Position numbers and translations under genes: made by a program. Under the pieces are notes generated by a model, which was not told the origin of the DNA, made no database searches, and worked only from the letters and a program-made list of their open reading frames with translations. 64,000 nucleotides of DNA. It comes from Spirochaetota bacterium. Its GTDB lineage: Bacteria; Spirochaetota; UBA6919; CBDBPB01. Where the stretch lies: the NCBI GenBank assembly GCA_965208615.1, contig CBDBPB010000004.1, forward strand, positions 541,234 to 605,233, written 5' to 3'. This document shows, one piece after another, positions 18,401 through 64,000 of this stretch (the first letter of the stretch is position 1; each line of letters starts with the position of its first letter).

Positions 18401-18409
18401 ATATTATTT

Positions 18410-18843: not shown

Positions 18844-18912
18844 AACTAACAAAATGCCTGATAGAATGTTTTTTGTTATATTTTCTAAAACGTTTGTTAA
18901 CGCCTAGTACTA

Positions 18913-45095: not shown

Positions 45096-45277
45096 TATAG
45101 AGTTTATTATTAAAAAGCACTATTTCTATCTTTTTAGGTTATGTTACTAATTATTTTAGCTTTTAGATAAGTTATTCTAAGACAATTGCTAAATAGATTT
45201 TATCTATATTTTTTAAGTTTTAGAAATATAAGTTAGCTTAGTTTAATCTACACTATTAGAACAATTACTAATCTAAT

Positions 45278-45303
45278 AAAAAAAGAGGAGCTATACTCCC
45301 CTT
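45278..45303 (-). terminator. Rho-independent terminator of Pmp-like gene 1
   Basis: Minus strand AAGGGGAGTATAGCTCCTCTTTTTTT. Confidence 0.75.
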
Positions 45304-45328
45304 AATTTTAACTGACTAAATAATATAC

Positions 45329-47125
45329 TTACTGGCCTGACTCAAGCTCTGACTTTACAAGTTTATAAGTATCACCATCCTTGACAACCTTTTTATTTTC
45401 ATCATCACCTTTTCCATACTCTGGCTCGCCTGTTATGCTTGAATTATTATTATAAATAGCCCCGCCTTTGCCTACTTTGTTTTTAGTAGGATCATTAGGC
45501 GAATTAGGATCATAAACACCAGCAATGTTTTTATTAAAAGTTACTTTACCTGTGAAGTTTGGAGAGCTATTATTATAATTAGCCATGCCCCCTCCGTTAT
45601 TATTAGCCTTATTATTAGTAAAAGTCACATTTGTTAACTCTGGAGAGCTATTATTATTATTAAGCATGCCCCCTCCTTCCTTACTAGCCTTATTATTAGT
45701 AAAAGTCACAGTTGTTAACTCTGGGGTGCTATTATTATTATACATGCCTCCTCCGTCATCTTTAGCCGCATTACTATTAAACTTCACATTTGTTAAAGTG
45801 GGCGAGCTATTACTATTAGCCATGCCCCCTCCGTTATTATTAGCCGTATTACTATTAAAAGTCACACCTGTTAACTTTGGAGAAGAGCTTTTCCAATTAA
45901 ACATGCCCCCTCCTTCCTTACTAGCCGCATTACTATTAAAAGTCACACCTGTTAACTCTGGAGAGCTTTTATCATTAAGCATGCCCCCTCCCCATGAGGC
46001 CGTATTACTATTAAAAGTCACAGTTGTTAACTCTGGGGTGCTATTATAATTATACATGCCTCCTCCTCTATTAGCCGTATTTTTAGTAAAAGTCACATTT
46101 GTTAACTTTGGAGGCGTTGGAGAGCTATCATAATTAGCCATGCCCCCTCCGTATTCAGTAGCCGCATTACTAGTAAACTCCACATCTTTTAGCGTTGGAG
46201 AGCTTTTATCATTAAGCATGCCCCCTCCGTATTTAGCCGTATTACTATTAAAAGTCACAGTTGTTAACTCTGGGGTGCTATTATTATTATACATGCCTCC
46301 TCCTCTATTAGCCGTATTTTTAGTAAAAGTCACATTTGTTAACTTTGGAGGCGTTGGAGAGCTATTATTATAATTATACATGCCTCCTCCTCTATTAGCC
46401 GTATTTTTAGTAAAAGTCACAGTTGTTAACTCTGGAGAGCTATTATTATTAGCCATGCCCCCTCCGTATTCCTTAGCCGCATTACTATTAAAAGTCACAT
46501 CTGTTAACTCTGGAGAGCTATTATCATTAAACATGCCCCCTCCGTATTTATGAGCAAGATTACCATTAGCATTGCCTTTAGTAATTGTAACCCCTGCTAA
46601 CTTTGCAGTCTTATCTAGGTCTGCAGTAGCTGGATGATAAAAAACATGATAGACCTTATCACTATCATTGTCCTTTGTTCCAATATCACCGCTTAGAGTA
46701 GTCTTATATTGCTCAGGCTTATTAGTCTCACCAACCTTTTCACCTTTATAACCCCCAATAACCTCTACACCATTCCTTAACGAAAAATGCTTTTCACGAT
46801 CATTATTTTTATCTTCATCAGCACTATTTGGCCTACTAGCAGGCGTATAAGTCCCTTGGGCTACATATACCTTCTTTTTATTATTCTTAAAAGCATCCTC
46901 AATACCCTCTTGAAGATCACTATAAGCTTTTTGCCAGGTTTTACCGTCTCCACCAGTAACACCTACTTTTACAAAAACCCCACCTTGTTCAGCTTTTTGA
47001 ATAGGGTTATAAGGAGGAGTAGGACTTATTATCTTACTAGCACCTTCCTCACAACCACCAGCTCTAAGCATGGAAATACTAATTAATAGTATTATTACTA
47101 TATTTAAATAACTTTTTTTTGTCAT
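45329..47125 (-). CDS. Pmp-like right-handed beta-helix repeat surface lipoprotein, paralog 1
   Basis: Leader ending LRAGG-C; W..AY.DLQ and VYVAQGTY cap; about 13 repeats of GGGMxNxxSSPxLTxVTFxxNxA (FxxN and GG[G/A] motifs). Confidence 0.8.
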   Translation of the reverse strand: MTKKSYLNIVIILLISISMLRAGGCEEGASKIISPTPPYNPIQKAEQGGVFVKVGVTGGDGKTWQKAYSDLQEGIEDAFKNNKKKVYVAQGTYTPASRPNSADEDKNNDREKHFSLRNGVEVIGGYKGEKVGETNKPEQYKTTLSGDIGTKDNDSDKVYHVFYHPATADLDKTAKLAGVTITKGNANGNLAHKYGGGMFNDNSSPELTDVTFNSNAAKEYGGGMANNNSSPELTTVTFTKNTANRGGGMYNYNNSSPTPPKLTNVTFTKNTANRGGGMYNNNSTPELTTVTFNSNTAKYGGGMLNDKSSPTLKDVEFTSNAATEYGGGMANYDSSPTPPKLTNVTFTKNTANRGGGMYNYNSTPELTTVTFNSNTASWGGGMLNDKSSPELTGVTFNSNAASKEGGGMFNWKSSSPKLTGVTFNSNTANNNGGGMANSNSSPTLTNVKFNSNAAKDDGGGMYNNNSTPELTTVTFTNNKASKEGGGMLNNNNSSPELTNVTFTNNKANNNGGGMANYNNSSPNFTGKVTFNKNIAGVYDPNSPNDPTKNKVGKGGAIYNNNSSITGEPEYGKGDDENKKVVKDGDTYKLVKSELESGQ

Positions 47126-47359: not shown

Positions 47360-48415
47360 TTACTGGCCTGACTCAAGCTCTGACTTTACATATTTATATA
47401 TATCACCAACCTTGACAACCTTTTTATTTTCATCATCACCTTTTCCATACTCTGGCTCGCCTGTTATGCTTGAATTATTATTATAAATAGCCCCGCCTTT
47501 GCCTACTTTGTTTTTAGTAGGATCATTAGGCGAATTAGGATCATAAACACCAGCAATGTTTTTATTAAAAGTTACTTTACCTGTGAAGTTTGGAGAGCTA
47601 TTATTATAATTAAACATACCCCCTCCGTTATTAGTAGCCTCATTACTAGTAAACTCCACATCTTTTAGCGTTGGAGAGCTATTATTACTATTATACATGC
47701 CCCCTCCGTCATAAGTAGCCTTATTATTAGTAAAAGTCACAGTTGTTAACTCTGGGGTGCTATTATTATTATACATGCCTCCTCCGTCATCTTTAGCCGT
47801 ATTACTATTAAACTTCACATTTGTTAAAGTGGGTGAGCTATTACTATTAGCCATGCCCCCTCCGTTATTATGGGGGAAAAAACTATTAGCATTGCCTTTG
47901 GCAATTATAACCCTTACTAACTTTGCAGTCTTATCTAGCTTTGCAGTAGCTGGATGATAAAAAACATGATAGACGTTATCACTATCATTGTCCTTTGTTC
48001 CAATATTACCGCTTAGGATAGTCTTATATTGTTCAGGATTATTAGACTCATCAACCTTTTCACCAGGAAAACCCCCAATAACCTCTACACCATTCCTTAA
48101 TGAAAAATGGTTATTACGACCATTATTTTTATCTTCATCAGCACTATTTGGCCAACTAGTAGGCGTATAAGTCCCTTGGGCTACATATACCTTCTTTTTA
48201 TTATTCTTAAAAGCATCCTCAATACCTTTTTGAAGATCGCTATAAGCAGTTTTCCAGGTTTTACCGTTTTTAGTAGTACGAGTTCCAGCTTTTACAAAAA
48301 CTCCTCCTGCTTCAGCTTGAGGATTTATTACCTCATCGGCATCGCACTTACCTCTAGCTAGCGAAAAACTAACTAATAGTATTATTACTATATTTAAACA
48401 ACATTTTTTAGTCAT
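47360..48415 (-). CDS. Pmp-like beta-helix repeat surface lipoprotein, paralog 2
   Basis: Same N-cap and near-identical C-terminus as paralog 1, only 4 GGGM repeats; leader ending LARGK-C. Confidence 0.8.
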   Translation of the reverse strand: MTKKCCLNIVIILLVSFSLARGKCDADEVINPQAEAGGVFVKAGTRTTKNGKTWKTAYSDLQKGIEDAFKNNKKKVYVAQGTYTPTSWPNSADEDKNNGRNNHFSLRNGVEVIGGFPGEKVDESNNPEQYKTILSGNIGTKDNDSDNVYHVFYHPATAKLDKTAKLVRVIIAKGNANSFFPHNNGGGMANSNSSPTLTNVKFNSNTAKDDGGGMYNNNSTPELTTVTFTNNKATYDGGGMYNSNNSSPTLKDVEFTSNEATNNGGGMFNYNNSSPNFTGKVTFNKNIAGVYDPNSPNDPTKNKVGKGGAIYNNNSSITGEPEYGKGDDENKKVVKVGDIYKYVKSELESGQ

Positions 48416-48593
48416 AACAGATTTCCTTTATTTTTATAAGACTACTTTAAATATAGTTCAAATCATACAAAAAAGCTAATTTTCATTGGATATTTATTAG
48501 CTATAGCTAGTAAAGTTTTAGTATTTTAGTTAGGTAGTTATAAGGGGGATAGATATATCCTCAAGGTGAACATTCATAAATAGAATAAGAATG

Positions 48594-49040
48594 ACATTTT
48601 ATGATAAAGTTATGACGGAGCATATAAGGTAAAAAGTAAGACATATAACGTAAAGGCAGATGTGTTTTAGATTCCTTTGTGGAACAGGAAAGTTAAAATA
48701 TTTATGTAAAAGTTATTTTCCTGTGTCAAGCAGGTTATCCCTATATGCTCTTTAAGTGCTGCTTAAATGCCTTAGTAATTAACACAAAATATCACTTCTT
48801 ATGCAAGTAGTCATCATTACGGGAGCTATTAAGAATCCCTTACTGAGACTAAGGATTATACACCCTTATTAAGTGTTAACGGATTTGCAGTTCCATAAAG
48901 GCGTAGAGCGGATTATTTAAATATTACATGTTGACTTTATATGTAAAACTTCAAAAAAGTATACCTAATCCTCTATGATAAATAACAATCATAAAAAGTA
49001 AACTACTACATCCTCTTTACAATAACATACTAAAACCTCT
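48594..49040 (+). ncRNA. dispersed structured non-coding element, copy B
   Basis: Helices AAGT 48634-48637/ACTT 48948-48951, ACATATAA 48641-48648/TTATATGT 48937-48944, CCTTTGTGGAAC 48674-48685/GTTCCATAAAGG 48890-48901, AGGAAAGT/ATTTTCCT. Confidence 0.65.
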
Positions 49041-49241
49041 TATAACTTTTATAAAAAGTATTTCTTGTCGTTTTTTTTTATGCTTACTCCTACTTTTAGA
49101 CCTGCTCACTCTTTTTGTGCATAATAAAACCTTAATAATAAAAATAAAAGTTTTTATTGACATTTCTCGTTTTTTTATATAAATTTGTATACCTCTTTTT
49201 TGCTTTTGAGGTTGTTTATGGCAATATAATCTTTACAAGGA

Positions 49242-50342
49242 GTGAGTATGGAAATAGAAAATCCTACTATTTGGGAAAAGATGAAGAGTAAGGGCTACTC
49301 AAGACGAGACTTTCTACAATTATGCAGTTATATGGCCGCTATAACTGGTGTTGGTATAGGAGGTTTGCCTAAGGTAGTCAGTGCTGCCGAACAAAAAGTA
49401 AGACCTCCTGTTGTGTGGTTCCATTTTCAAGAGTGTACTTGCTGTAGTGAGTCGTTTATTAGAACATCACACCCTGTTGTGGCCGATATACTTTTAGATA
49501 TTATATCACTAAACTACTCAGAAACTTTACAAGCCGCTGCTGGTCATCAGGCTGAGAAGTCTCTTCATGATACAATGAAAAATAATAAAGGCAAATATAT
49601 TGTTCTTGTTGAGGGTTCTATTCCTACTGGAAATAATGGTTATTATTGTACTATTGCTGGTAAGCCAGCAAAAGACATTATTACCGAAGCGGCTGATGGT
49701 GCTGCTGCTATGATTGCATGGGGTAATTGTGCTTCTTATGGGTGTATACAGGCTGCTAAGCCTAATCCTACTGGAGCAAAGCCTCTTCAAAAGATAGTTA
49801 GCAACCCTGTAATTAATGTGCCTGGATGCCCTCCTATAGGGGATGTAATGGCCGCTGTTGTTGCACATATTGTTGTTTTGGGCAAGATGCCACAGTTAGA
49901 TAGTCAAGGTAGGCCAAAAGAGTTTTATTCACGTCGTATTCATGATACTTGTTACAGAAGGCCATACTATGATGCTGGTATGTTTGTTGAAAACTGGGAT
50001 GATGAAAATGCTAAAAAAGGTTACTGCCTTTATAAAATGGGTTGCCGTGGACCTGTTACCTACAATGCTTGTGCGGTTACAAAATGGAATGAAGGTACAA
50101 GTTATCCAATTCAGTCTGGTCATGGGTGTATTGGTTGTTCAGAGGCTGACTTCTGGGATAATGGGCCATTCTATCAGCATTTACCTGCCTTCCCCGGCTT
50201 TGGTATTGAGTCAACAGCAAATACTGTAGGTGCTACAGCCGCTGTGGTTACTACAGCGGCAATAGCTGGACATGCAGTCGCTACTAATATTAGAAAACGT
50301 GGTTCTATTAAAGAAAATCTTGAAGAAGGGGGTAATGAATAA
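49242..50342 (+). CDS. hyaA: membrane-bound [NiFe]-hydrogenase small subunit (group 1d-like)
   Basis: Tat motif SRRDFL, ECTCCSES, WGNCASYGC, PGCPP, C-terminal TM anchor. Confidence 0.92.
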   Translation: MSMEIENPTIWEKMKSKGYSRRDFLQLCSYMAAITGVGIGGLPKVVSAAEQKVRPPVVWFHFQECTCCSESFIRTSHPVVADILLDIISLNYSETLQAAAGHQAEKSLHDTMKNNKGKYIVLVEGSIPTGNNGYYCTIAGKPAKDIITEAADGAAAMIAWGNCASYGCIQAAKPNPTGAKPLQKIVSNPVINVPGCPPIGDVMAAVVAHIVVLGKMPQLDSQGRPKEFYSRRIHDTCYRRPYYDAGMFVENWDDENAKKGYCLYKMGCRGPVTYNACAVTKWNEGTSYPIQSGHGCIGCSEADFWDNGPFYQHLPAFPGFGIESTANTVGATAAVVTTAAIAGHAVATNIRKRGSIKENLEEGGNE

Positions 50343-52102
50343 TGGCTAATCGTATAGTTGTTGATCCTGTTACACGAATAGAAGGCCATCTTAGAATAGA
50401 GGTCGAACTTGATGATAATAATGTTATAAAAGAGGCTTATAGTTCAGGTACTATGGTCAGAGGTTTTGAGATTATTCTTAAAGACAGAGACCCAAGGGAT
50501 GCATGGGCATTAACAGAGAGGGTTTGTGGTGTATGTACCACGTCTCATGCCTTAACTAGTGTTAGAGCGGTTGAATCTGCTCTTAATATAAAAGTCCCGC
50601 CTAGTGCAGAGCTTATAAGAAATATTATGTGTGCTACTCAGAATGTTCAAGATCACGTTATTCATTTTTATCATTTGCACGCACTAGACTGGGTTGATAT
50701 TGTTAGCTCCCTTAGTGCTGATCCAAAAGAAACAGCTAAAATTGCCTCTAGTATATCTAATTGGCCAAAGAGTTCACCTGGTTATTTTTCTGATATACAA
50801 AAACGTATTGCTGGCTTTGCTAAGAGTAAAGAGGGACTTGGTATTTTTGCTAATGCTTATTGGGGACATAAAGCTTATAAACTACCGCCTGAGGTTAATT
50901 TAATAGGAGTTGCTCATTATTTAGAGGCATTAGAATTTCAAAGAGAAATGGCAAAAATACATGCTATTTTTGGTGGTAAGAACCCACATCCTAATTATCT
51001 TGTTGGTGGTATGCCCTGTTCTTTAAACATTGAAGAGGTTAACGCTATTAATACCGATAGGTTAAATCGTGTTGGAAAGATAATTAAAGAATCTATGGCT
51101 TTTGTAGAACAGGTATACATCCCTGATATTATGGCTGTTGCTGCAATATATAAAAAAGAAGCTCCTGAGTGGTATTCATTTGGTGGTGGTGTTAAAAACT
51201 ATTTAGCTTATGGAGAGCTACCAACTAAAAGCTATTGGGATGATGCACATAAGACTTTTAAACTACCAAGAGGGGTTATCCTAAACCGTAATTTAGATGA
51301 GGTACATGAAGTTAAGCAGAATGAAGATAAGGAGATAAGAGAACATATTAATAATTCTTGGTATAAATATGCTGGTGGGGATAAAGTAGGTTTACATCCT
51401 TTTAAGGGTGAGACTGAGTTTAATTATACTGGTCCAAAAGAGCATTATGAGCATCTTGATGTTAGTCAGAAGTACTCATGGTTAAAAACTCCAAGATGGA
51501 AAGGCCATCCTATGGAAGTAGGACCTTTATCCCGTATGCTTGTTGGCTATGCAAGGGGTAAGGCTGGTGATAAAAATGCAACTGAGATTTATGAAGCTGT
51601 TACTAATACATTAAAGGCATTAGATGCTCCTGCGGCTGCGTTATTCTCTACTTTGGGTCGTACAGCTGCTAGGGCTATTGAAACAAAGCTGTCAGCTCAT
51701 TGGCTTAAAGGGTTTTATGATGAGCTTATTGCTAATGTTAAAAGTGGTAATACTAGTACTTTTAACGGTGAAAAGTGGGATCCTGACTCTTGGCCTAAAG
51801 AAGCTCAAGGTGCTGGCTTAACTGAGGCACCTAGAGGAGCTTTAGGGCATTGGATTAAAATAAAAGACAAAAAGATTGATAGCTATCAACTTGTTGTACC
51901 CACTACGTGGAATGGTTCACCTAAAGACCCAAAAGGACAAATGTCTGCTTTTGAAGCATCTCTTGTTGGCACAAAAATGGAAAACAGAGAACAGCCTTTA
52001 GAAATACTAAGGACTATTCACTCCTTTGATCCTTGTCTTGCATGTTCGGTTCATGTGTATGATTCAAAGGGTCGTCATGTGCATCAATTTAGTTTTGAGT
52101 AA
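50342..52102 (+). CDS. hyaB: [NiFe]-hydrogenase large subunit
   Basis: DPVTRIEGH, L1 ERVCGVCTTSH, L2 SFDPCLACSVH plus C-terminal extension. Confidence 0.95.
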   Translation: MANRIVVDPVTRIEGHLRIEVELDDNNVIKEAYSSGTMVRGFEIILKDRDPRDAWALTERVCGVCTTSHALTSVRAVESALNIKVPPSAELIRNIMCATQNVQDHVIHFYHLHALDWVDIVSSLSADPKETAKIASSISNWPKSSPGYFSDIQKRIAGFAKSKEGLGIFANAYWGHKAYKLPPEVNLIGVAHYLEALEFQREMAKIHAIFGGKNPHPNYLVGGMPCSLNIEEVNAINTDRLNRVGKIIKESMAFVEQVYIPDIMAVAAIYKKEAPEWYSFGGGVKNYLAYGELPTKSYWDDAHKTFKLPRGVILNRNLDEVHEVKQNEDKEIREHINNSWYKYAGGDKVGLHPFKGETEFNYTGPKEHYEHLDVSQKYSWLKTPRWKGHPMEVGPLSRMLVGYARGKAGDKNATEIYEAVTNTLKALDAPAAALFSTLGRTAARAIETKLSAHWLKGFYDELIANVKSGNTSTFNGEKWDPDSWPKEAQGAGLTEAPRGALGHWIKIKDKKIDSYQLVVPTTWNGSPKDPKGQMSAFEASLVGTKMENREQPLEILRTIHSFDPCLACSVHVYDSKGRHVHQFSFE

Positions 52103-52122
52103 AATGTATTTAGGAGTTTTGT

Positions 52123-52956
52123 ATGTCGAGTATTTATAGTCGTATTTACGTTTGGGAATGGCCTGTTAGGTTCTTTCATTGGCTTAACGTAGCCTGTATT
52201 ATTTTGTTGGCTGGTACTGGTTATCTTATTAGTGAGCCTATTAAACTATCCGTTGCTAATGAGGCATATAATCAGTACTGGTTTGGGACAATAAGGTTTA
52301 TCCATTTTAGTACAGCCTATGTTTTTACATTTAACTTAATATTCCGTTTATATTGGGGGTTTGTGGGTAACAAGTATTCCAAGTGGACTAATTTTGTTCC
52401 TCATAATGTCAATCAGTTTAAGGAGTCTGGTCAGATTTTAAAGATGGATATATTTTTAGCTGATCCTAAGACCAAGCTTACTATTGGACACAATAGTTTA
52501 GCGTCTCTTATTTATTTTATTATTTTTATTGCATCGATATTTCAGGTACTTACAGGCTTTACACTTTATAGTGATAATAGTCCCTTGATATTCCAAAGGG
52601 TATTTATTGGAGTTATTGCTCTTGGAATAGCTGGAGTATTGTGGCGATATTTTAATGATAAAACGAATCTTCAAAACTTTTTAGCTTTATTTATTGCTAT
52701 TCTAATAGCTATAGCCTTATATTTTGTTATGTATTTTATCTTTGGATGGCTTGTTGCAGACGGAGGTGCAAAGGTTATTTTTGGTGCTGACTCTATGCTT
52801 AAGAGACTACATAATTATACAATGTGGGTATTTTTGTTATTTTTCATTTCCCATGTTTATCTTGTTTTCTATCACGATTATGTAGAAGGACGTGGTGTTG
52901 CCTCATCTATGATTGGTGGATGGAAGTTTATAAAAAAAGGTGAAGAAGATAAATAG
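52123..52956 (+). CDS. hyaC: Ni/Fe-hydrogenase b-type cytochrome subunit
   Basis: YVWEWPVRFFHW, RFIHF, GHNSLA, SHVY, SSMIGGWK. Confidence 0.9.
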   Translation: MSSIYSRIYVWEWPVRFFHWLNVACIILLAGTGYLISEPIKLSVANEAYNQYWFGTIRFIHFSTAYVFTFNLIFRLYWGFVGNKYSKWTNFVPHNVNQFKESGQILKMDIFLADPKTKLTIGHNSLASLIYFIIFIASIFQVLTGFTLYSDNSPLIFQRVFIGVIALGIAGVLWRYFNDKTNLQNFLALFIAILIAIALYFVMYFIFGWLVADGGAKVIFGADSMLKRLHNYTMWVFLLFFISHVYLVFYHDYVEGRGVASSMIGGWKFIKKGEEDK

Positions 52957-53460
52957 TTGGATTATAAGGAGATAAGCTTGATAGATGAGTTAGACGAGTT
53001 ATATGAGGTGCTTGTTTTAGGTTTAGGTAATATGTTGATGGGTGATGAAGCCGCTGGTATTGAGGTTATAAAGTTTTTAGAGAATAGTGGAAATCCGTCT
53101 GGAGTTTATTATCTTGATGGTGGTACTGGTACATTTGATCTTCTTGATCCTATGGAGAGGGCAAAGAATATTATTTTAGTTGATGCTTCTATTGATAATG
53201 ATCTTAGTCCTGGAACGATTACCAGGCTTAAGCCGAAGTTTTCTTCTGACTATCCTATAAGTTTATCTGGGCATGAGCTTGGTCTTAAGGATCTTTTAAA
53301 TGCTTTTTATCTTTGCGGAGGAGCAAGGGAAAGAGTTATATTATATACCATTAGTATCAACTTACCCAGTGGGCTTAAGATTGGTTTATCTTCTAAGGTT
53401 GAGGAGGCTATACCAAAAGTTGCTAAAAAGGTTCGCGATGAAGTTAATAGTTATTTATAG
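52957..53460 (+). CDS. hyaD: hydrogenase maturation protease
   Basis: GLGNMLMGDEAAG, DGGT, VDA, SGHE. Confidence 0.88.
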   Translation: MDYKEISLIDELDELYEVLVLGLGNMLMGDEAAGIEVIKFLENSGNPSGVYYLDGGTGTFDLLDPMERAKNIILVDASIDNDLSPGTITRLKPKFSSDYPISLSGHELGLKDLLNAFYLCGGARERVILYTISINLPSGLKIGLSSKVEEAIPKVAKKVRDEVNSYL

Positions 53461-53550
53461 ATATAGGTTTTTATTTTATTATAGGCAGTGCTTTTTTAAG
53501 CACTGTTTTTTTTTGTTATTATTATTTTCTTAATAGCTAACCAGCATAAT

Positions 53551-54009
53551 AGTATGTTATTGTAAAGAGGTTTTAGTAGTTTAGTTTTTATGATTGTTAT
53601 TTATTCATAGAGGATTAGGTATATTTTTTTGAAGTTTTACATATAAAGTAAATATGTAATATTTAAATAATCCGCTCTACACCTTTATAGAACTGCAAAC
53701 TCTTTAACACTTAATAAAGGTATATAATTCTTAGTCTCAGTAAGGGATTCTTAATAGCTCTCGTAGTGATGATAACTTGCATAAAAAGCATTTTTTGTGT
53801 TAATTACTGAATCATTTAAGCAGCATTTCAAGAGCATATAAGGATAAAGCTTATGACACAAGAAAATAACTTTTACATAAATATTTTAACTTTCCTGTTC
53901 CATAAAGAGATCTAAAATCCATTTAGCTTTACGTTATATGTCTTACTTTTTACGTTGTATGTCCAGTCATAACTCTGTCATAAAATGATAACCTAAATTA
54001 TCAAAAAAA
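53551..54009 (-). ncRNA. dispersed structured non-coding element, copy C
   Basis: Reverse complement aligns with copies A and B; same helices kept with G.U pairs. Confidence 0.65.
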
Positions 54010-54035: not shown

Positions 54036-54767
54036 CTATAACTTTAAACGCTTGAAAATAAACTCCGGAATATGAATGATAATGAGCATAATCCATCTCC
54101 AGAAAAATGGTAAGTAAACTACACTTTTATTTTTATCAATTGCCCTATGTATACCCTTTGCAACAGCTTCTGGACTCGCAAATAAAAAACCTTTCTTCAT
54201 CTTAGCTGTCATGGGAGTGTCTACAAAACCAGGCTTAACAGTAATTACATTTATACCAAATGGATATAATCGATTTCTTAACCCTTGCAGTAAAGTAGTA
54301 GTCGCTGACTTCGCTGTTCCATATATGTAATTACTCTGTCGTCCACGATCTCCTGCTACAGAAGAAATTACTGCAATACATCCTCTTTTCTTTTTCTCTA
54401 ATTCATTGGCAATAATAGTAAGGAGAGATAGAATACTTAAAAAATTAGTTTTTATTTCTTGTTCTGCAAGGTTAAAATCTTGTTCACATACTTTTTGATC
54501 ACCCAGTGTCCCATGGGCTATTAATACAACATCAATATCCGACATATTGGCTTTTTCAATGAGATCATTATGTTTTTCTATGTTATTTAAATCAGCAACT
54601 TCATAATCCACCTTAGAAGCCCCTCTTACAAGCAAATCATCCTTAAGGGTAATTAGCTTGTCTTTATTCCTGGCTATTAAAAATAACTCCTTATTTTTTA
54701 AAGCAAATAACCTAGCTGCCTCAGTCGCAATGGCTGAATTAGCACCAATAATTAAAATCTTTTTCAT
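54036..54767 (-). CDS. SDR oxidoreductase, DprE2-like
   Basis: IIGANSAIA, SSVAGDRGRQSNYIYGTAK, KPGFVDTPMT. Confidence 0.85.
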   Translation of the reverse strand: MKKILIIGANSAIATEAARLFALKNKELFLIARNKDKLITLKDDLLVRGASKVDYEVADLNNIEKHNDLIEKANMSDIDVVLIAHGTLGDQKVCEQDFNLAEQEIKTNFLSILSLLTIIANELEKKKRGCIAVISSVAGDRGRQSNYIYGTAKSATTTLLQGLRNRLYPFGINVITVKPGFVDTPMTAKMKKGFLFASPEAVAKGIHRAIDKNKSVVYLPFFWRWIMLIIIHIPEFIFKRLKL

Positions 54768-54784
54768 AATATACCCCTCTGTTT

Positions 54785-56083
54785 TTATGATGTAACTCTT
54801 CTCCAAAAACTTGATGAAAACTGTGGATCAATATATTTAGCAAACTCATTCCATTTAGGATAAAATGATTGAAAATGCCTAGAACTCATTATCGCATCCT
54901 TAGCCGGATAAATAGAACCTTCATGCTCTGTTACCATATCAGAAAGCCTTTTAAGAAGCTTTAAGGTTTGACTTTCCTTATTAGGAAAATCTAAGGCTAT
55001 AGTAATACCTTCTTTTGGAAAAGAGAGCATTCCAGGCGACACAATATTACCAAACTGCTTTAGTACAACAAGAAAAGAACCTTTGCCAGACTTGGATATA
55101 GCCTGCAAAATAGGTTTAATGGCTTTGTTAGGAACAACACATTGAAATTGAAAAAAACCTTGTTTTCCATACATTCTATTCCAATTATCTATGTTATCCA
55201 AAGGATAAAAAAAAGAAGAATAATAGACTAAAGCTTTTGACTTTTTTTTGAGCTGTTTATTATAATAAAAAAAATTGAATAACTTAATATTCCATTTACT
55301 CAATAAAAAACTAGGAGCTGTTATTGGAAAATTAATAGGGCTTAGCTTAGGCTCTTTAGGAAGTTCATCAGGAGCCTTTTGTGAATGATTTCCCCTCATA
55401 AAAATCCCTTTCCCTAAAGAACTGCCTTTTGATAAACAATCTATCCACGAAACAGTATATTCATAACTTTTATCTGATTGACTCGATAAATCAAAGAATT
55501 CATCAATGTTCTTAAACTTGATTGATTCCATATCAATAAAAGGATTTTCTATCTTTCGTAATTGTATTTCTGCCCATAAGATAAGCCCAGTAAGGCCTAA
55601 GCCACCTATAGTCGCTTTAAACAAGTCAGAATTACTATTTTCAGAACAAACTAAATGAGTTCCATCAGATCTAACTAATTCAAATTGCTTAACAAAATTA
55701 CCAAAGGTACCAACTCGATGATGGTTTTTACCATGAACATCATTTGCAATAGCTCCTCCAACAGATACATGCTGAGTTCCTGGAGTAACAGCTAAAAACC
55801 AACCTTTATTAATCCCAATAGCTAAAATCTCTTTTAGAGTTACACCGCTCTCACACCTTAATATACCATTTTTAGAATCAAAAGAAATAAAATTATCTAA
55901 CCTTTTATTAGATAAAAGTACTCCGTTTTCGTTTAAACAACTGTCTCCATAACTCCTTCCCTGTCCATAGGGCAACATCTTAAAAGATGTTATAGGAAGA
56001 ATATCATCTGATAAACAGTCTATCTCATGGATAAGCTTATGTTTTACCTTTGGGTAACGTCCCCATGAAAGCAAGTCGGACAT
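54785..56083 (-). CDS. FAD-linked oxidase, DprE1-like (polyprenylphosphoryl-ribose 2'-oxidase)
   Basis: GRSYGD, VTPGT, GGAIANDVHGKNHH, YPAKD. Confidence 0.85.
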   Translation of the reverse strand: MSDLLSWGRYPKVKHKLIHEIDCLSDDILPITSFKMLPYGQGRSYGDSCLNENGVLLSNKRLDNFISFDSKNGILRCESGVTLKEILAIGINKGWFLAVTPGTQHVSVGGAIANDVHGKNHHRVGTFGNFVKQFELVRSDGTHLVCSENSNSDLFKATIGGLGLTGLILWAEIQLRKIENPFIDMESIKFKNIDEFFDLSSQSDKSYEYTVSWIDCLSKGSSLGKGIFMRGNHSQKAPDELPKEPKLSPINFPITAPSFLLSKWNIKLFNFFYYNKQLKKKSKALVYYSSFFYPLDNIDNWNRMYGKQGFFQFQCVVPNKAIKPILQAISKSGKGSFLVVLKQFGNIVSPGMLSFPKEGITIALDFPNKESQTLKLLKRLSDMVTEHEGSIYPAKDAIMSSRHFQSFYPKWNEFAKYIDPQFSSSFWRRVTS

Positions 56084-56095
56084 ATAAATTCCTCT

Positions 56096-57523
56096 TTAAA
56101 TAGAAAAGATTATGATTATTACTGTTAAAAGTCCAATAAAATAGCTTGTCTTATCTTCTAAGGCATAAACAACAGGATCAATACGTATTCTATTTCTTCT
56201 AGCTAAAAGCCATAATCGACTAATCCAAAATAAAAGAAGTGGACAAATAGCCCATAAAATAGCACTATTAGAATAAAGAGCTTTTACATCTACGCTATTT
56301 AAATATAACGCCATTACTAATACAGAGATATAGCCACTAGATGTTCCAAAAATAGCTATTTGTTCTATATCTTTATTATAATAGCCTCGTCCTATTAACC
56401 TCTTTCTATAACCCTTTTTTATGTTTAATTGAAGCTCTGAAAACCTCTTTACACAAGCTAAACTTAAAAAAAAGAACATAGAAAACACTAAAAGCCATTC
56501 TGTAAGATTTACATCTATAGCTACAGCACCAGCAAAGATACGAATAGTATATAAAGTAGCTAATAAAATAATATCTAGTACGACTAATTTTTTAATATGA
56601 AGAGAATAAACAATAGTACATATTAAATAAGTTATAATTATTAATTGAAAGTTAAGATTTAAATAAAATAAGCTTAAAAAAATCCCAATAGCAATTAACA
56701 ATGGAGCTAAAACTATCCCCCATATTATGGATAGGTCACCTGAGGCAAAAGGACGCTCTTTTTTAGTGGGATGCTGTCTATCGGATTCAATATCCATTAA
56801 ATCATTGATAATATAAGTCCCAGAAGCTATAAAGCTAAAAGCTAAAAATCCTAATATAGCTTTCTCTAATCTATCCCATTGGAAGATAGTATGACTTAAT
56901 ATGAGAGGTACAAAAATTAGTACGTTTTTTAACCATTGATGAATTCTAATAGTCTTTAGTAAAACTTTAATAAGATTTCTTTCTTTTAAAAATACCTTTG
57001 AGAAATTAATACTTTTTGAACACTTTTCAATAAACTTTTTACTATGAGAAACAATAAGAGCATTACGAGAGTTTAGCCAAATTTTAAAGTCTATCTTTTC
57101 GTTACCTATATAATCAAAAAGTTTTTTTCCAAAGTTTTCTTCCAAGGTCCTCAGCTTAAACTCTCCAGAAAGATTTACTCTACCATTACTGGCCAATATA
57201 TTATCAAATAGTCCAACCTTATTGGCAATCTTTTCAGCAATATTAATGTCTGAGGCAGTGGCTAAAACAATCTTTCTACCTTTTTTATGTTCATCTTCTA
57301 AAAAAGCTAATAACTCCTCGTTAAAAGGTAAAATAGAAGGATTAATAGATACCCTTTTAATAATCTGTTCTTTTAGAAATGCCTTACCTTTTAACAACCA
57401 AATAGGTAAAATAAAAAAATAAAGTAAGTTTTTTTTTAATAAAAGCAATGCACTTTCTATAAGTATATCAGTTTTTATTAGAGTGCCATCCAGATCGACA
57501 CATAAAGGTATTTCTTTGCTCAT
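56096..57523 (-). CDS. HAD-fused UbiA-family polyprenyl-phosphate phosphoribosyltransferase
   Basis: VDLDGTL HAD motif; RIHQWLKN, YIINDLMDIESDRQHPTKKERPFASG. Confidence 0.88.
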   Translation of the reverse strand: MSKEIPLCVDLDGTLIKTDILIESALLLLKKNLLYFFILPIWLLKGKAFLKEQIIKRVSINPSILPFNEELLAFLEDEHKKGRKIVLATASDINIAEKIANKVGLFDNILASNGRVNLSGEFKLRTLEENFGKKLFDYIGNEKIDFKIWLNSRNALIVSHSKKFIEKCSKSINFSKVFLKERNLIKVLLKTIRIHQWLKNVLIFVPLILSHTIFQWDRLEKAILGFLAFSFIASGTYIINDLMDIESDRQHPTKKERPFASGDLSIIWGIVLAPLLIAIGIFLSLFYLNLNFQLIIITYLICTIVYSLHIKKLVVLDIILLATLYTIRIFAGAVAIDVNLTEWLLVFSMFFFLSLACVKRFSELQLNIKKGYRKRLIGRGYYNKDIEQIAIFGTSSGYISVLVMALYLNSVDVKALYSNSAILWAICPLLLFWISRLWLLARRNRIRIDPVVYALEDKTSYFIGLLTVIIIIFSI

Positions 57524-57573
57524 AGTAGACCTTATTTTTGTATATAAATTAGTTTAACTTAGTTGTGCTAATA

Positions 57574-58257
57574 TTAACTATGTAGAAAAAGTACAATTAA
57601 CTCCTTTGGGCCATGGACACCATGAGTTAATTCAAATTCTATATCAGCGGTTTTTGAAGGACCTGATACTAAAACAATATTAGTAGGCATATTATTTGTC
57701 CAGCTCTCTTTTTCTATGACTTCCAAAAAGGTATTATAAAGTTTAGCAGTGTCTAGAATAGCTATGTGTATTGGAGGTACTAATGACATAAGTCTTGGCT
57801 CCTCTTTTGTAGGCCAAATAATAATAGAACCCGTATCTGCTATTCCACCCTTTGTAGTAGTTATAGAGGCATCTAAACTAAATAGTCTCTTTTTAAAGCT
57901 GTCAATACTATCAGGATATGGAACAAGTTCAATATTACTTTCACCCATGCTATCAGATAGTATTTTACCAATATTTGTTTCAAGAGAATATAATAAAGTT
58001 TTGACTTCTTTTTTATGTAAAATACCTAAAACATCTTTAGCAATATCTTTATTATTTGTGTCATAAACCTCTGCATGGTGTACGTTAGTTAATAAGTCTT
58101 TCATTCGATCGATCTTATTAGTGGTAAAAAACCTATTACTATTATATAAGGCGTTACAATATAATGTATTATAATCATTATCCATTAAAATACTTTTATT
58201 AAACTTACTTTTTTTAAGACGGGATAAAATGTTAACTTTAGCACTAGCCATAATCAA
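57574..58257 (-). CDS. lutC: lactate utilization protein C (LUD domain)
   Basis: IADTGS, SLVPPIHIA, SGPSKTADIE..L.HGVHGP. Confidence 0.85.
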   Translation of the reverse strand: MIMASAKVNILSRLKKSKFNKSILMDNDYNTLYCNALYNSNRFFTTNKIDRMKDLLTNVHHAEVYDTNNKDIAKDVLGILHKKEVKTLLYSLETNIGKILSDSMGESNIELVPYPDSIDSFKKRLFSLDASITTTKGGIADTGSIIIWPTKEEPRLMSLVPPIHIAILDTAKLYNTFLEVIEKESWTNNMPTNIVLVSGPSKTADIEFELTHGVHGPKELIVLFLHS

Positions 58258-59656
58258 TATCCTCTTTTTTAAGCATTTTAGTAAGTGATTCCTTAGCCAG
58301 CTTAGGTGTTTTTCTAAATCTATTCCAATCTTTTAAAGGACCAAAATTAAGAGGTATTTTATGAGCCAATGGTCCAGCTAAACTAACGAAAATCCTATAT
58401 AGCTTTGGGGATGAGTATAGCCATTTCCATGCCTTCCATACAATACCCTCAATGAACTTTTTATTAGAATCCTTAATAGCCCCTTTTTTTAGTACCTGAT
58501 GTCTTAGTTTAATAAGTATTTCGGATAAGGGGATTTTAACGGGACAAACCTCTGAGCAGGCACCACACAAGGTTGAGGCAGTTGGTAATTCATCAGCTTT
58601 TTTAGCACCCTCCATCATGGTAGTAAGGATTTTACCAATAGGACCAGAATAAACGTATCCATAACCGTGTCCCCCTATAGCTAAGTATATTGGACAGTGA
58701 TTTAAACATGCACCACAGCGTATACACAATAACACTTTTTGGATTTCTGGATTAGCGTATATCTCAGAACGCCCATTATCCAGTATGACTAAGTGGACTT
58801 CATTAGGGCCATCTTTTTCTTCATCCTTTTTAGGAGAGGTAATCATATTAAAATAAGTGGTAATAGATTGTCCAGTAGCTGATCTAGTCAATAGACTAAG
58901 GAGTATGGGGACGTCTTCTAGTTTTTCAACTACTTTTTCGATACCCATAACGGCTATATGCACTGGAGGAAGGCTGGTACACATACGTCCATTGCCTTCA
59001 TTTTCCACCAAACAAAGGGTACCAGTATTGGCAACGGCAAAGTTAACGCCGCTGAGGCCAATTTGTGCATCAATAAACTTTTTTCTAAGTTTATCTCTAG
59101 CTATTGCAACAATATCTTTTATATTTTCGTTATATTTAACCCCTAGTTTATCCTCGAATATTTTAGCTACCTGAGATCTATTTTTATGAATAGCGGGTAC
59201 TATAATGTGATAGGGGCTTTCACCTGCTAGTTGAATTATATATTCGCCAAGATCTGACTCTATAGACTCAATTTCATTGTTATTCAAGAAGTCGTTTATG
59301 TGTATCTCTTCGGATACCATAGATTTTCCTTTAACAAGCTTATTGGCATTATGTTTTTTAACAATATTTAATATAATATTATTAGCCTCATCAGGGGTTT
59401 CTGCCCAGTGTACTTTTATACCGTTTTTTTTACAATTTTTTTCAAGTTTTTCGAGTAGTTCGGGGAGATTACTAATAGCTCTTATTTTTATGTAGTTAGC
59501 CAAGTTACGAAGGGCTTCTAGTTCTTTTTTATTTGTGAATGCTTCTTTTCGATGTTTAACGAGATCATCCATAACCCATCTAAAGTTGGCTCGTAAATAT
59601 CTATTTTTAAGTTCTTTTTTAACTCTGGCCTTAAATTCGCTAATCTTTTTTGGCAT
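58244..59656 (-). CDS. lutB: lactate utilization iron-sulfur protein B
   Basis: KSMVSEE, DLGEYI, ENEGNGR, CIRCGACLNHCP, CGACSEVCPVKI. Confidence 0.9.
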   Translation of the reverse strand: MPKKISEFKARVKKELKNRYLRANFRWVMDDLVKHRKEAFTNKKELEALRNLANYIKIRAISNLPELLEKLEKNCKKNGIKVHWAETPDEANNIILNIVKKHNANKLVKGKSMVSEEIHINDFLNNNEIESIESDLGEYIIQLAGESPYHIIVPAIHKNRSQVAKIFEDKLGVKYNENIKDIVAIARDKLRKKFIDAQIGLSGVNFAVANTGTLCLVENEGNGRMCTSLPPVHIAVMGIEKVVEKLEDVPILLSLLTRSATGQSITTYFNMITSPKKDEEKDGPNEVHLVILDNGRSEIYANPEIQKVLLCIRCGACLNHCPIYLAIGGHGYGYVYSGPIGKILTTMMEGAKKADELPTASTLCGACSEVCPVKIPLSEILIKLRHQVLKKGAIKDSNKKFIEGIVWKAWKWLYSSPKLYRIFVSLAGPLAHKIPLNFGPLKDWNRFRKTPKLAKESLTKMLKKEDIDYG

Positions 59657-60404
59657 TAGTACGCTCCCACAAGAAATTTGCTATATGTTCAGTAGGTAAT
59701 ATAATCTCCATTTTTTTTATAGAGCCGTCAATGTTCAATAAGCACCCGCATTCACTAGCCAGCAGTATATCAGCAGATGATTTAACAGCGTCAATGACTT
59801 TATCATGAACGATAACAGCAGATATTTCTGGATGTTTTATAGAAAAGGTTCCCCCAAATCCACAGCATTCTTTTTCTCTTTCTATTTCTATTAGTTCTAC
59901 ATTTTTTAGTTGTCTTAATAGAGCTTTAGGTTCATCAACTATATTCATTGCCCTAGAGGCTTGACAGGATGTATGCCATACGGCTTTTATTGGAGGGCCT
60001 AGATCTTCTAGGTTGATTTTTAGTGAGTGTACTAAAAACTCAGTAAACTCATAAACTCTTGAAGCAACGTTTTCAACTATTGGCAAGAAGGGGTCATTTT
60101 CGAATAGTTTTATGGCATGATTTTTTAACATGGATGCGCATGATGATGAGGGTACAATAATAGGGTAGTCTTTATAGAACAATTTTATTTGTTTTTTTAT
60201 AACGGATTTAGCTTCTTTCCAGTATCCCGAGTTAAAGGCTGGTTGACTACAGCAAGTCTGATTTTTGGGATAGATAACTTTTATAGATTCTCTTTTTAGT
60301 AATTTAACTGCAGATAGTCCGATTTTCGGTGATAATAAGTTAACAAGACAGGTGCTATAGAAGTATACAGCATCTGGTTTTTTAGGATAATTTTTTATTT
60401 TCAT
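59640..60404 (-). CDS. lutA: lactate utilization protein A (CCG domains)
   Basis: QTCCSQPAFNSG, SCA, ECCGFGGTFS. Confidence 0.9.
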   Translation of the reverse strand: MKIKNYPKKPDAVYFYSTCLVNLLSPKIGLSAVKLLKRESIKVIYPKNQTCCSQPAFNSGYWKEAKSVIKKQIKLFYKDYPIIVPSSSCASMLKNHAIKLFENDPFLPIVENVASRVYEFTEFLVHSLKINLEDLGPPIKAVWHTSCQASRAMNIVDEPKALLRQLKNVELIEIEREKECCGFGGTFSIKHPEISAVIVHDKVIDAVKSSADILLASECGCLLNIDGSIKKMEIILPTEHIANFLWERTNAKKD

Positions 60405-60813: not shown

Positions 60814-60875
60814 ATACTTTTTTGAAGTTTTACACATGAGGTTTTAGGTGTATTATTGTAAAGAGGATCTGGCAG
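60814..60875 (-). repeat. rearranged exact duplications of the 3' tail of element copy D
   Basis: 60842-60875 = 60938-60971 (34 bp) and 60814-60837 = 61013-61036 (24 bp). Confidence 0.8.
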
Positions 60876-60937
60876 GTTGGTAGTTAATTTTGCTATATAC
60901 TGGTGTAATGTGATTAAGATTTAGGTATTACTATTTA

Positions 60938-61407
60938 TTTTAGGTGTATTATTGTAAAGAGGATCTGGCAGTTTACTTTTTATAGTTGTTATTTATTTAT
61001 AGAGGGTTAAGCATACTTTTTTGAAGTTTTACACATAACGTCAACATATAATATTTAAACAATCCGCTCTACGCCTTTATGGAACTGCAAATCCGTTAAC
61101 ACTTAATAAAGGTCTATAATTCTTAGTTCCAGTGAGGGATTCTTAATAGCTCTCGTAATGATGACTACTTGCATAAAAAGTGATATTTTGTGTTAATTAC
61201 TAAAGTATTTAAACAGCACTTAAAGAGCATATAGGGATAACCTGCTTGACACAGGAAAATAACTTTTCCATGAATATCTAATTCTAACTTACTTTCCTGT
61301 TCCACAAAGAGATATAAAATACATCCGCCTTTACGTTATATGTCTTACCTTTTACCTTATACGCTTTGCCGTAACTTTGTCATAAGATGATAACTAAATT
61401 ATCATAA
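60938..61407 (-). ncRNA. dispersed structured non-coding element, copy D
   Basis: Reverse complement aligns with copies A and B; ACATATAACGT/ACGTTATGTGT helix; short insertion confined to a hairpin loop. Confidence 0.65.
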
Positions 61408-61517
61408 AAAAGAAGAGCCGTCCTCCCCTTAATTTTAACAAAAAAATAAATATACTTGCTCGTCCGACTTAAAGTCTAAGCGTACAAGTTTATATGCATG
61501 TCTATTTTCAACAACCT
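61403..61517 (-). pseudogene. decayed 3' remnant and terminator of a Pmp-like repeat gene
   Basis: Minus strand reads VVENRHAYKLVRLDFKSDEQ versus intact VVKVDNTYKLVKSNLESG, then TTAAGGGGAGGACGGCTCTTCTTTTTT. Confidence 0.65.
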
Positions 61518-61740: not shown

Positions 61741-62310
61741 GCTAAAAAAAACAATATTTTAGTAACTTTAGCTTTATTAACAGGATGCGGAGAGGATGAT
61801 ATATCCTGTGAGGCTCTGGGTAATTGTGATGAAACTGGTACAGCAATAAGTAAAACCTGTAAGATAACAAAAGATACGGATACTCATACAGGCGTTGTTA
61901 CTTGTGAGAAAACTACTAAAACTGAATGTGATACTGATAAAGGTGAGTGGGGCGTACAATGTACTAAATCTGATGGTACAAAAATGCCAACACCACTAGA
62001 ACTCGAAGCAGTTAAATGGCTTGATAGTAAAAGTATTTATACATCTTATGAAAAGATTCCCACCTTATTGTACCTTAATCTTTCTGGTAGAGTAAAAACT
62101 CAAGATGACCGTATTAAACTTACTAAGTATATTGGTCTTTTTACAGGGTTGCATCTACTTTATTTAAATAAAAATCAGCTAAGGTCATTACCAAAAGAGA
62201 TTGGCAACTTAACAAACTTGGAGTGGCTTGATTTAGATAATAATCCTATTTCTGAAAATGAGAAAAATAGGATAAAAACCCTTTTACCTAATACTAATAT
62301 TAGCTTTTAA
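61741..62310 (+). CDS. Cys-rich leucine-rich-repeat lipoprotein lacking an ATG for its leader (possible pseudogene)
   Basis: Frame open from 61741: AKKNNILVTLALLTG-C GEDDISC...; C-terminal LYLNKNQLRSLPKEIGNLTNLEWLDLDNNPI. Confidence 0.65.
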   Translation, partial: AKKNNILVTLALLTGCGEDDISCEALGNCDETGTAISKTCKITKDTDTHTGVVTCEKTTKTECDTDKGEWGVQCTKSDGTKMPTPLELEAVKWLDSKSIYTSYEKIPTLLYLNLSGRVKTQDDRIKLTKYIGLFTGLHLLYLNKNQLRSLPKEIGNLTNLEWLDLDNNPISENEKNRIKTLLPNTNISF

Positions 62311-62595: not shown

Positions 62596-64000
62596 TTATT
62601 GGACTGGGCCTGACTCAAGGTTTGACTTTACAAGTTTATATGTATTATCCACTTTGACGACCTTTTTATTTTCATCATTACCTATTCCATAGGTTGGTGT
62701 GCCTATTATTCTTGAGTCAGGACCATATCTAGAACCAACAACATTATAAATAGCCCCGCCTTCGCCTATTTGGCTATTAGCAACACTACCAGCAATGTTT
62801 TTATTAAAAATCACCGTATTATCTAAAATGGGAGAGCTATTATCCCAATTAAAACATGCCCCCTCCATTCCTTGTAGCCGTATTATTAGTAAACTTCACA
62901 TTTGTTAAAGTGGGAGAGCTATTATTATCATTAACCATGCCCCCTCCGTAATATGTAGCCGTATTACTCTCAAAAGTCACATTTTCTAAAGTAGGAGAGC
63001 TATTATAAAAATTAGACATGCCCCCCTCCGCCCCTAGTAGCCGTATTACTCTCAAAAGTCACATTTGTTAAAGTGGGAGAGCTATTATCATTAAACATGC
63101 CCCCTCCCTCTTTGGCCGTATTATTAGTAAACTTCACATTTGTTAAAGTGGGAGAGCTATTATTATCATTAACCATGCCCCCTCCGTAATATGTAGCCGT
63201 ATTATTAGTAAACTTCACATTTGTTAAAGTGGGAGAGCTATTATTATTATGCATGCCCCCTCCGTATGCAGCCGTATTATTAGTAAACTCCACATCTTTT
63301 AAAGTAGGAGAGCTATTATTATTATACATGCCCCCCCCCTCCGCTCCAATTAGCCGTATTACTAGTAAACTTCACATTTGTTAAAGTGGGAGAGCTATTA
63401 TTATCATTAGACATGCCCCCTCCGTAATATGTAGCCGTGTTACTATTAAACTCCACATTTGTTAAAATGGGAGAGCTATTATTATTATTAAACATGCCCC
63501 CCCCCTCCTCCTCCGGCCGTGTTATTACTGATAGATTTATTACCAGTAAAATAACTATCCATTAACTTTGGAGAACTATTATCATTATACATAGCCCCTC
63601 CATTCTTTGTAGCCGTATTATTATTAAATCTAGAATTGACTATCTTTGGAGAGCTTTTATTAGCATTATACATTCCCCCACCGTTTTTAGCATTATTATC
63701 CTTAAAATTAACGCTTATTAAATTTGAAGTGCTATTACTGTTATAAATAGCTCCACCACTATTTTTAGCCTCATTACCCTCAAAGTTAATGCTTATCAAA
63801 CTTGGAGAGCTATTATCATTATACATACCCCCTCCACTGCCCTTATTAGCACCATCAGCCTTGCCCTTAGTAATAGTAAAGTACTTCAACTTTGAAGTTT
63901 TATTTAAACCCTTATTATAAAAAACATTAAGTACCCTTGTATTACCAAGATCACCAGTTAAAATAGTCTTAGTAGGATCCTTATCCCGTTTATCGCTGTT
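62596..64000 (-). pseudogene. Pmp-like beta-helix repeat gene, paralog 3, split by four +1 frameshifts (5' end outside the window)
   Basis: Continuous repeat array; frame breaks at G9 (63497-63505), G9 (63331-63339), G6 (63021-63026) and T4 (62851-62854). Confidence 0.8.

Follow-up and report, generated by a model that had tools for sequence, protein, structure and literature searches.

The 64,000-nucleotide stretch of DNA analysed here (the window, positions 541,234 to 605,233 of the forward strand of contig CBDBPB010000004.1, assembly GCA_965208615.1, from a Spirochaetota bacterium) carries four copies, designated A to D, of a repeated sequence, and they belong to a repeat family that is new, an orphan of odd construction from a lineage that is under-sampled, and no new class of RNA. 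The original prediction, made from the letters of the window, had taken the copies for an undescribed structured RNA element with covarying long-range helices. What was delimited there, at 430-470 nt, proves to be only part, the core and the 3′ arm, of a modular unit that in copy A reaches ~700 nt. In its long form this unit is bounded by terminal inverted repeats (TIRs), it occurs some 40 times in the genome, its copies display no covariation above that of shuffled alignments, and the genome has no transposase among the families looked for. The interpretation preferred, to which belief and doubt are given in equal measure, is that the family is a lineage-specific relic, a non-autonomous mosaic repeat resembling MITEs, the miniature inverted-repeat kind of transposable element, and now reshaped by recombination.

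A repeat search of the window and the module map both place the four copies at the predicted positions, and their pairwise identity is 80-93%. In the repeat search 18424-18723 is a direct repeat of 48595-48894 (88%) and 53552-53788 of 60944-61180 (86%), and the plus-strand copies form inverted repeats with the minus-strand copies (80-95%). The extrapolation from four copies in the window to many genome-wide was sound. In the assembly, which has 2,456,614 bases in 9 contigs and is 99.4% complete, BLASTN recovers 40 copies of at least 290 nt together with fragments, in 56 segments, and a profile of the central 115 nt yields 48 matches, 41 of them full-length and 7 partial cores. The modules total 38,990 bp, or 1.59% of the genome, and there are 46 complexes of at least 250 bp, the largest being 2,148 bp. 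In contigs of the sequencing run that is the likely source the summed depth over the element is ~100-620×, against ~5.6-8.3× on the flanks of copy B, which fits a high copy number.

The claim that there is no conserved open reading frame (ORF) also held. No ORF of at least 80 aa overlaps the four window copies and none of at least 110 aa overlaps any of the 40, while in the six of the 40 copies inspected in all frames the longest open frames are ~30-56 aa. The core has no conserved reading frame, and the possibility of a decayed gene or small ORF within it was considered and rejected, an invariant ATG-led frame of 23 codons showing, when the alignment is read by eye, substitutions at all codon positions. 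Core identities form a continuum between 81% and 100% around a median of 88.6%, subfamilies are present, and one pair of cores 42 kb apart is identical yet differs in its flanks. In an alignment of all 40 copies (429 columns) conservation peaks centrally, with columns 240-340 ~97-99% conserved and the ends of the element the most variable part. By our own arithmetic, columns 243-362 have ~20 private substitutions where a uniform spread would give ~32.

The common layout, from the modules of copy A mapped on the genome, is (M1-PT-TT)n, then the core (C1-C2-C3), then Xa or Xb and, optionally, P3. The conserved core of ~310-340 nt is universal, and units measure 350-700 nt plus arrays. An invariant 8-bp inverted repeat, ACATATAA...TTATATGT, brackets the core and is what had been described as the second helix. 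The 5′ boundary of M1 is sharp at TGTTAsTAATTGTTyTAGTrG, with unrelated flanks before it in every aligned copy that bears M1. The 3′ arms fall into two sequence classes, both ending ...CTACTAAAAC-nTTnnn-TAACA; this 3′ end is the inverted complement of the start of M1, and the reverse complement of the 3′ arm matches M1 positions. The resulting TIR is ~21 bp with the tips TGT...ACA. A strict TIR motif has 100 hits in the genome, where a shuffled genome gives 2, and 88 of the 100 are no more than 2.6 kb from a core. When one mismatch is tolerated, this genome has 60 hits and a set of 400 others from the phylum has none, with 0 and 1 for the motif reversed as a control. A lax pattern with three substitutions allowed is poorly specific (1206 hits versus 483 in the shuffled genome). 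Both TIR ends are recognised at 22 of the 40 loci. Copy B and five more among the 40 have a short form, which begins with the core and lacks M1, PT and TT. P3 is a separate repeat of ~50 nt that follows many 3′ ends, itself ends in a second TIR-like motif and has 29 loose BLASTN hits in the genome. The complementary motifs GTTTTAGTAG and CTACTAAAAC might recall a CRISPR array with its tracrRNA, a reading that was rejected: the arrays lack spacers and the motifs are the two TIRs.

Copy A, on the plus strand, has all of these parts. Its 5′ TIR, of the TGTTA-N6-GTTyTAGTrG type, is at 18182-18202, coincides with a sharp homology boundary and opens M1 (18176-18250); PT (18251-18365) and TT (18366-18432) follow, then core C1-C3 (18433-18776), with ACATATAA at 18470-18477 and TTATATGT at 18766-18773, and finally Xa plus P3 (18777-18905), which contain the 3′ TIR (18831-18851), P3 proper (18856-18905) and a TIR-like motif (18882-18901). 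As for extent, the original prediction had taken in the core and 3′ arm and underestimated the full element, copy A running from 18182 to ~18901 and not from 18410 to 18843; repetition around it spans ~18174 to ~18874. Copy B, the short form (48591-49047, plus strand), consists of core C1-C3 at 48604-48947 with its 8-bp inverted repeat at 48641-48648 and 48937-48944, and of a 3′ arm (48954-49046) with a TIR-like end at 49027-49047. Copy C (53550-54008, minus strand) has a partial TT (54008-53979), a core (53976-53636) and a 3′ arm (53629-53550) that stops within the 3′ TIR-like motif. Copy D (60938-61517, minus strand) retains PT (61517-61467), TT (61457-61381), core (61376-61028) and 3′ arm (61021-~60938).

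Two of the 5′ modules have relatives among the host's own genes. PT is a piece taken from the 3′ end of the coding sequence of PMP-like lipoproteins (Chlam_PMP, GGGM-repeat) and has matches at the 3′ ends of intact genes of that family; in copy A the tail of the frame 18224-18433 resembles the C-terminus of a 598-aa PMP-like protein. TT is the terminator region of the same family; copy D's TT holds an intact-looking terminator hairpin, and elsewhere it is degenerate, in copy A consisting of a degenerate terminator and leader. At the 3′ end of a real PMP-like gene in the window (45221-45418, minus strand) the PT-homologous tail (45336-45418), the terminator (45275-45323) and a solo M1-like motif (45221-45271) stand together, and it was probably from this gene end that the 5′ modules of the element came. 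A PT-homologous coding tail is also present in the second PMP-like gene of the window (47367-47449, minus strand, within 47360-48415).

The terminal modules are amplified head to tail directly 5′ of many cores, with array periods of ~74, 110, 145, 158, 165, 169, 201, 222, 263 and 318 nt. The clearest array, at C4:91051-92160, is of 15 contiguous, near-identical 74-nt units without spacers, each with a TIR motif; it adjoins a Fur-like ORF whose last Cys codon and TAG stop fall within the first TIR, the gene thus having its end provided by the repeat. A CRISPR array was rejected here too, as the units are contiguous with no unique spacers. Smaller duplications occur at the 3′ side, of P3 and, beside copy D, of a 58-nt 3′-terminal segment (60842-60899, minus strand) that lies in tandem with 60938-60995 at 83% identity. 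Read by eye, the array junctions are at short motifs common to the modules, such as ACATATA and ACATGTA, which indicates unequal or illegitimate recombination.

The family is lineage-specific: outside this genome it turned up in none of the genomes and collections that were searched. BLASTN against 40 relatives gave no match. A profile run over the same 40 gave one marginal hit, in a same-phylum genome (G034:C62:5843-5916, E 0.0025, 19.5 bits, model positions 16-87), that is probably due to chance. Exact 19-mer scans gave two hits in genome contigs and four in metagenome contigs, all matching only over 19-21 nt. In viral contigs neither the core 19-mer nor the TIR was found, and plasmids and phages had no match to the family. 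The host lineage is deep and the bacterium is alone in its family among the genomes compared; for its NiFe hydrogenase large subunit the best outside homologue is 70% identical, with top hits from KSB1, Caldithrix, Bacteroidetes and Chlorobi bins.

In the preferred interpretation, that of a relic MITE-like mosaic, an ancestral element would have acquired, or arisen from, the 3′ flank of a PMP-like lipoprotein gene and would have spread to ~40 intergenic sites by means of a transposase acting in trans that has since been lost from the genome. Recombination between the copies' own short internal repeats, presumed to be the present driver, would have reshaped them later, giving the tandem TIR-bearing 5′ modules, the alternative 3′ arms, short forms like copy B and homogenised cores, and the long-range "helices" would be inverted-repeat architecture inherited from the ancestral sequence instead of pairs selected in RNA. 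Several groups of DDE transposons typically have TGT...ACA tips. A non-autonomous mobile element was among the options that the original prediction had listed, and on that score the TIRs, the sharp boundaries, the unrelated flanks, the intergenic location in both orientations and the subfamilies speak for it, with the lack of target-site duplications (TSDs) and of a transposase on the other side. Like MITEs as generally defined, the family is small (~50-1000 bp being their range), lacks coding capacity and, in its long form, has TIRs at both ends.

Several results nevertheless weigh against that interpretation. Flank duplications of at least 4 nt are present at three of the 22 two-ended loci, not significantly above the permuted mean of 1.42 (fraction of permutations as high or higher, 0.157), with one clean 5-bp case at C7:2811, though erosion in old copies could mask target-site duplications. 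An autonomous partner is not to be found: the genome has no match to PF07282, PF01797, PF00665, PF01548, PF01609, PF00078, PF00239, PF13358 or PF00872 (TnpB Zn-ribbon, Y1, rve, IS110, DDE_Tnp_1, RVT_1, Resolvase, DDE_3 and Transposase_mut, respectively), each of which was found in control genomes. Genome-wide there is no multicopy ORF of insertion sequence (IS) type, the only multicopy ORFs being the PMP-like family and tandem paralogues; no TIR pair in the genome encloses an ORF; and no IS-like repeat is present at contig ends. The only tyrosine recombinases are XerD, above its NCBIfam cut-off, and an XerC-like protein (C4:85583-86485 and C8:117124-118041). Neither an empty site nor presence-absence polymorphism was seen. 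Contigs of three sequencing runs were compared with 48300-50400; in the one run that contains the sequence they fit the flanks exactly, none joins across the element, and the third run yielded no aligned contig. Conservation that is highest at the centre and lowest at the ends is the reverse of what is typical of a MITE driven by a transposase, copy B has no 5′ TIR module, and identical cores could reflect gene conversion and not new insertion. More generally, for all the repeats that it carries, this genome appears to be unusually devoid of the enzymes of classical mobile elements.

The closest counterpart in organization is BrickBuilt of Porphyromonas gingivalis, for which the sections of Klein et al. 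(2015, PMC4596501) drawn on here describe a tandem array without spacers set between a leader and a tail that carry small TIRs, 19 copies, every one intergenic, with lengths of 84-991 nt, a limited host range, bidirectional promoter activity and no transposase remnant. As far as those sections go, the two families have in common that they are non-coding, host-limited and intergenic, that non-repetitive end parts bearing small TIRs are joined to an array without spacers, that copies may be full, partial or one-ended with the size of the array setting the length, that no internal transposase remnant is found and that copies number in the tens (19 for BrickBuilt, ~41 cores here). On the same partial basis they differ in that the BrickBuilt array is an internal 23-nt minisatellite whereas here the 74-318 nt units are the TIR-bearing 5′ modules themselves, and in that BrickBuilt TIRs resemble resident IS5-family elements whereas here none of the nine tested families is present. 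The captured gene tail with its terminator and the highly conserved core of ~310 nt set the present family apart from BrickBuilt as there described, and the BrickBuilt TIRs of Table 2 in PMC4596501, to which the sequence comparison was limited, are unrelated to the TIR here. With classical MITEs such as Correia/CREE, whose general properties are summarised in PMC4596501 and PMC1797815, the family shares small size, lack of coding, AT-richness, TIR boundaries, multiple copies, intergenic location and foldability, and its 450-700 nt plus arrays are at the large end of their range. Unlike them, it has undetectable TSDs, no cognate IS and ends less conserved than the centre.

Recombination may, alternatively, have been sufficient from the outset. 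It is possible, though on the unlikely side, that the family is a mosaic of the NIME type, tied to PMP-like genes, seeded from their 3′ flanks and propagated by homologous and illegitimate recombination or gene conversion with no dedicated transposase, in which case it might encourage neighbouring genes of the PMP-like family to rearrange or vary. NIMEs, according to the parts of Bentley et al. (2007, PMC1797815) used here, consist of dRS3 repeats and RS units, are proposed to have been built by recombination, and form dynamic arrays tied to surface-protein genes and silent C-terminal cassettes. Judged by those parts, the similarity extends to dynamic intergenic arrays marked by an inverted-repeat motif of ~20 bp, to enrichment beside surface-protein genes and to a proposed origin by recombination with no classical transposase needed. 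The homology of PT and TT to an intact PMP-like tail and terminator, with the solo M1-like motif after the terminator of the real gene, fits such an origin, as do the many array periods with junctions at short shared motifs and the want of a transposase and of TSDs in the genome. Contigs also break at an element complex (right end of C3) and inside a PMP-like gene (right end of C4). A complex lies within 600 bp upstream of the start of 6 of the 15 PMP-like ORFs, compared with 49 of all 1818 ORFs of at least 150 aa, a count in which tandem PMP paralogues are non-independent observations; these complexes are upstream of and divergent from the gene, copy B among them, 179 nt from the start of 47360-48415. 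Against seeding from PMP-gene flanks, no core lies in the 600 nt after any of the 13 intact PMP-like C-termini that tblastn located, which also led to rejection of the idea that the element is simply a conserved downstream region of these genes. Some 34 of the 40 copies are not beside a PMP-like gene, and their unrelated neighbours and sharp TIR ends are hard to obtain by recombination alone; the PT units within an array are near-identical and offer no library of alternatives. NIME units, in the parts of the source used, are 19-214 bp, belong to more than 100 families and are each flanked by dRS3, whereas the present repeats form a single family, in which a large core is constant and the outer TIRs are a defined pair, and dRS3 is a phage integration target whereas no phage link was found here in the viral contigs or phages searched. 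As the hallmarks of TSDs and a cognate IS failed and there is no sequence kinship, the family is best said to work like BrickBuilt or NIMEs and is not filed as a member of either.

A role for the DNA itself, by which the element would be a domesticated module whose centre binds a host protein (nucleoid-associated, regulatory or recombination-related) or carries promoter activity that acts on the genes nearby, as is reported for some BrickBuilt copies, is unlikely. It would make sense of the centre-weighted conservation and of the intergenic position of all copies, and copies B and D are directly upstream of operons in sense orientation; the bidirectional promoter elements that the parts of PMC4596501 used here describe within BrickBuilt segments offer a precedent. 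Matches to sigma-70-type promoters, the signals to which the scan was limited, are nonetheless not enriched (7 against 4.9 ± 2.4 and 4 against 5.3 ± 2.5 in shuffles). The downstream gene has the same orientation as the element in 22 of the 40 copies and the opposite in 17, with none in one, so there is no orientation bias, and no protein partner was identified.

That the core of ~310 nt is a functional multicopy non-coding RNA gene (a structured RNA, a ribozyme or a guide-like RNA) is very unlikely. Large multicopy or transposon-associated RNAs include HEARO/IscB omega-RNA, TnpB reRNA, IS110 bridge RNA, OLE, GOLLD and ROOL. Like these, the element is several hundred nt long and non-coding, and such RNAs are sometimes multicopy and associated with mobile DNA; unlike them, it has no Rfam match, no TnpB, IS110 or Y1 in its genome and no covariation. 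The six helices and the pseudoknot of the original prediction were coded as 52 pairs and scored on the 40 copies against 500 shuffles. The complementarity is real, as 89.1% of cells are paired, far above the 34.4-50.2% obtained when the 3′ partners are slid by one to three columns. By contrast with the slid partners, the shuffles give 89.0% (154 of the 500 as high), and the other measures are no more favourable: double-change pairs number 3 versus 4.3 (468 as high), further pair types 23 versus 25.9 (494 as high) and the covariation score is 0.076 versus 0.077 (326 as high). All five covariation measures are at or below the shuffle means, so that helices said to covary do so on no measure above the shuffles, and in this larger set of copies no significant covariation was found, which is, as far as covariation goes, the outcome that the original prediction had named as telling against it. 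Within the available power, limited as all copies come from one genome and are ~88% identical, the covariation claim is refuted.

Individual helices give the same picture. The first, which had supplied the prime example of a compensatory change, is paired in only 63.8% of cells; the second is paired in 99.4%, is essentially invariant and so is uninformative on covariation; and in the proposed pseudoknot two of the seven pairs lack pairing, one in 30 copies and the other in 23 out of the 40. The alignment did bear out that a 9-nt insertion in copy D falls within the loop of the fourth hairpin. The G.U pairs said to predominate at non-Watson-Crick positions do so when counted by cells (221 G.U versus 78 A.C) and not when counted by pairs (17 with G.U versus 21 with A.C), and the helices having been picked on the plus strand with G.U allowed biases the G.U count. 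An RNAalifold consensus reaches -20.03 kcal/mol over the 429 columns, with a double change in 3 of 65 predicted pairs. A structure-agnostic screen, uncalibrated, found no stacked Watson-Crick covarying helix, with 328 canonical pairs versus 725 and 17 under two fake pairing rules; as one fake rule exceeds the real one, the co-variation that there is reflects the subfamilies.

Thermodynamically, copy B alone folds somewhat better than its shuffles (z -2.44 and -2.90), whereas for a sample of 20 cores out of the 40 the z values average -1.33 on the plus strand and -1.60 on the minus strand, the plus strand being the better in only 7 of the 20. The prediction that no known RNA family is involved was correct, with only a tRNA found in the window by Rfam 15 at the gathering threshold and with three junk hits, of E at least 1.6, in a permissive scan of 48400-49250 (E up to 10). 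Copies A and B have no terminator-like site, sigma-70-type promoter matches are not above shuffles and orientation to neighbouring genes is mixed. None of the sequencing runs that contain the sequence is registered as RNA. Selection on a single-stranded fold is thus not supported, there being no covariation, no strand asymmetry, no strong thermodynamic excess, no Rfam match and no promoter or terminator signal above shuffles. The central conservation, the genuine long-range complementarity of this non-coding sequence and the somewhat better fold of copy B are what favour an RNA, and an RNA role for the unusually conserved centre is possible but unsupported. Group II intron, IStron, omega-RNA and bridge-RNA readings were rejected, with no Rfam hits and no reverse transcriptase (RT), TnpB, Y1 or IS110 proteins.

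Very little credence is given to a last possibility, suggested by the absence of all tested transposase families with only XerC/XerD-type recombinases present, that the core, with its invariant 8-bp inverted repeat and conserved centre, is a module under purifying selection, either an RNA or a DNA scaffold that a host enzyme recognises, directing its own copying, or the amplification of TIR ends, through the host recombination machinery; if true, it would be a way for a repeat family to spread independently of a transposase.

As an RNA discovery the element does not stand, and follow-up effort on a false covariation signal is saved. As a repeat, it shows clearly how a single orphan element can take up 1.6% of a small genome whose lineage is deep and poorly sampled. 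The family joins features that are usually separate, namely MITE-like TIRs, a captured gene tail and terminator, amplification of TIR ends and a link to surface lipoproteins, and it does so in a genome with no recognisable transposase of the nine families tested. With further strains or metagenomes of the lineage, it could serve as a marker for genome rearrangement and as a test case for transposase-independent repeat spread. It also matters for assembly and annotation, as contigs break at its complexes and the stop codon of one gene is inside an element TIR.

The PMP-like proteins have a lipobox N-terminus and GGGM repeats of 26-27 aa (78-81 nt in tandem), with the Pfam Chlam_PMP match on the 598-aa protein. 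There are 15 such ORFs of at least 150 aa genome-wide, and the lipoproteins of this type in the window are at 45329-47125, 47360-48415 and 62596-64000, all on the minus strand. Copy B is upstream of a NiFe hydrogenase operon (49242-53460, plus strand), in which the small subunit carries a twin-arginine signal. A minus-strand operon (54036-60404) lies between copies C and D; the genes at its two ends are for a protein with a CCG cysteine-rich domain (59640-60404) and for a short-chain dehydrogenase (54036-54806). The third PMP-like copy, 62596-64000, comprises at least three ORFs, continues past the end of the window and may be broken. Between it and copy D a 108-aa ORF (61984-62310, plus strand), with weak leucine-rich-repeat matches below the Pfam cut-offs, may be a gene fragment.

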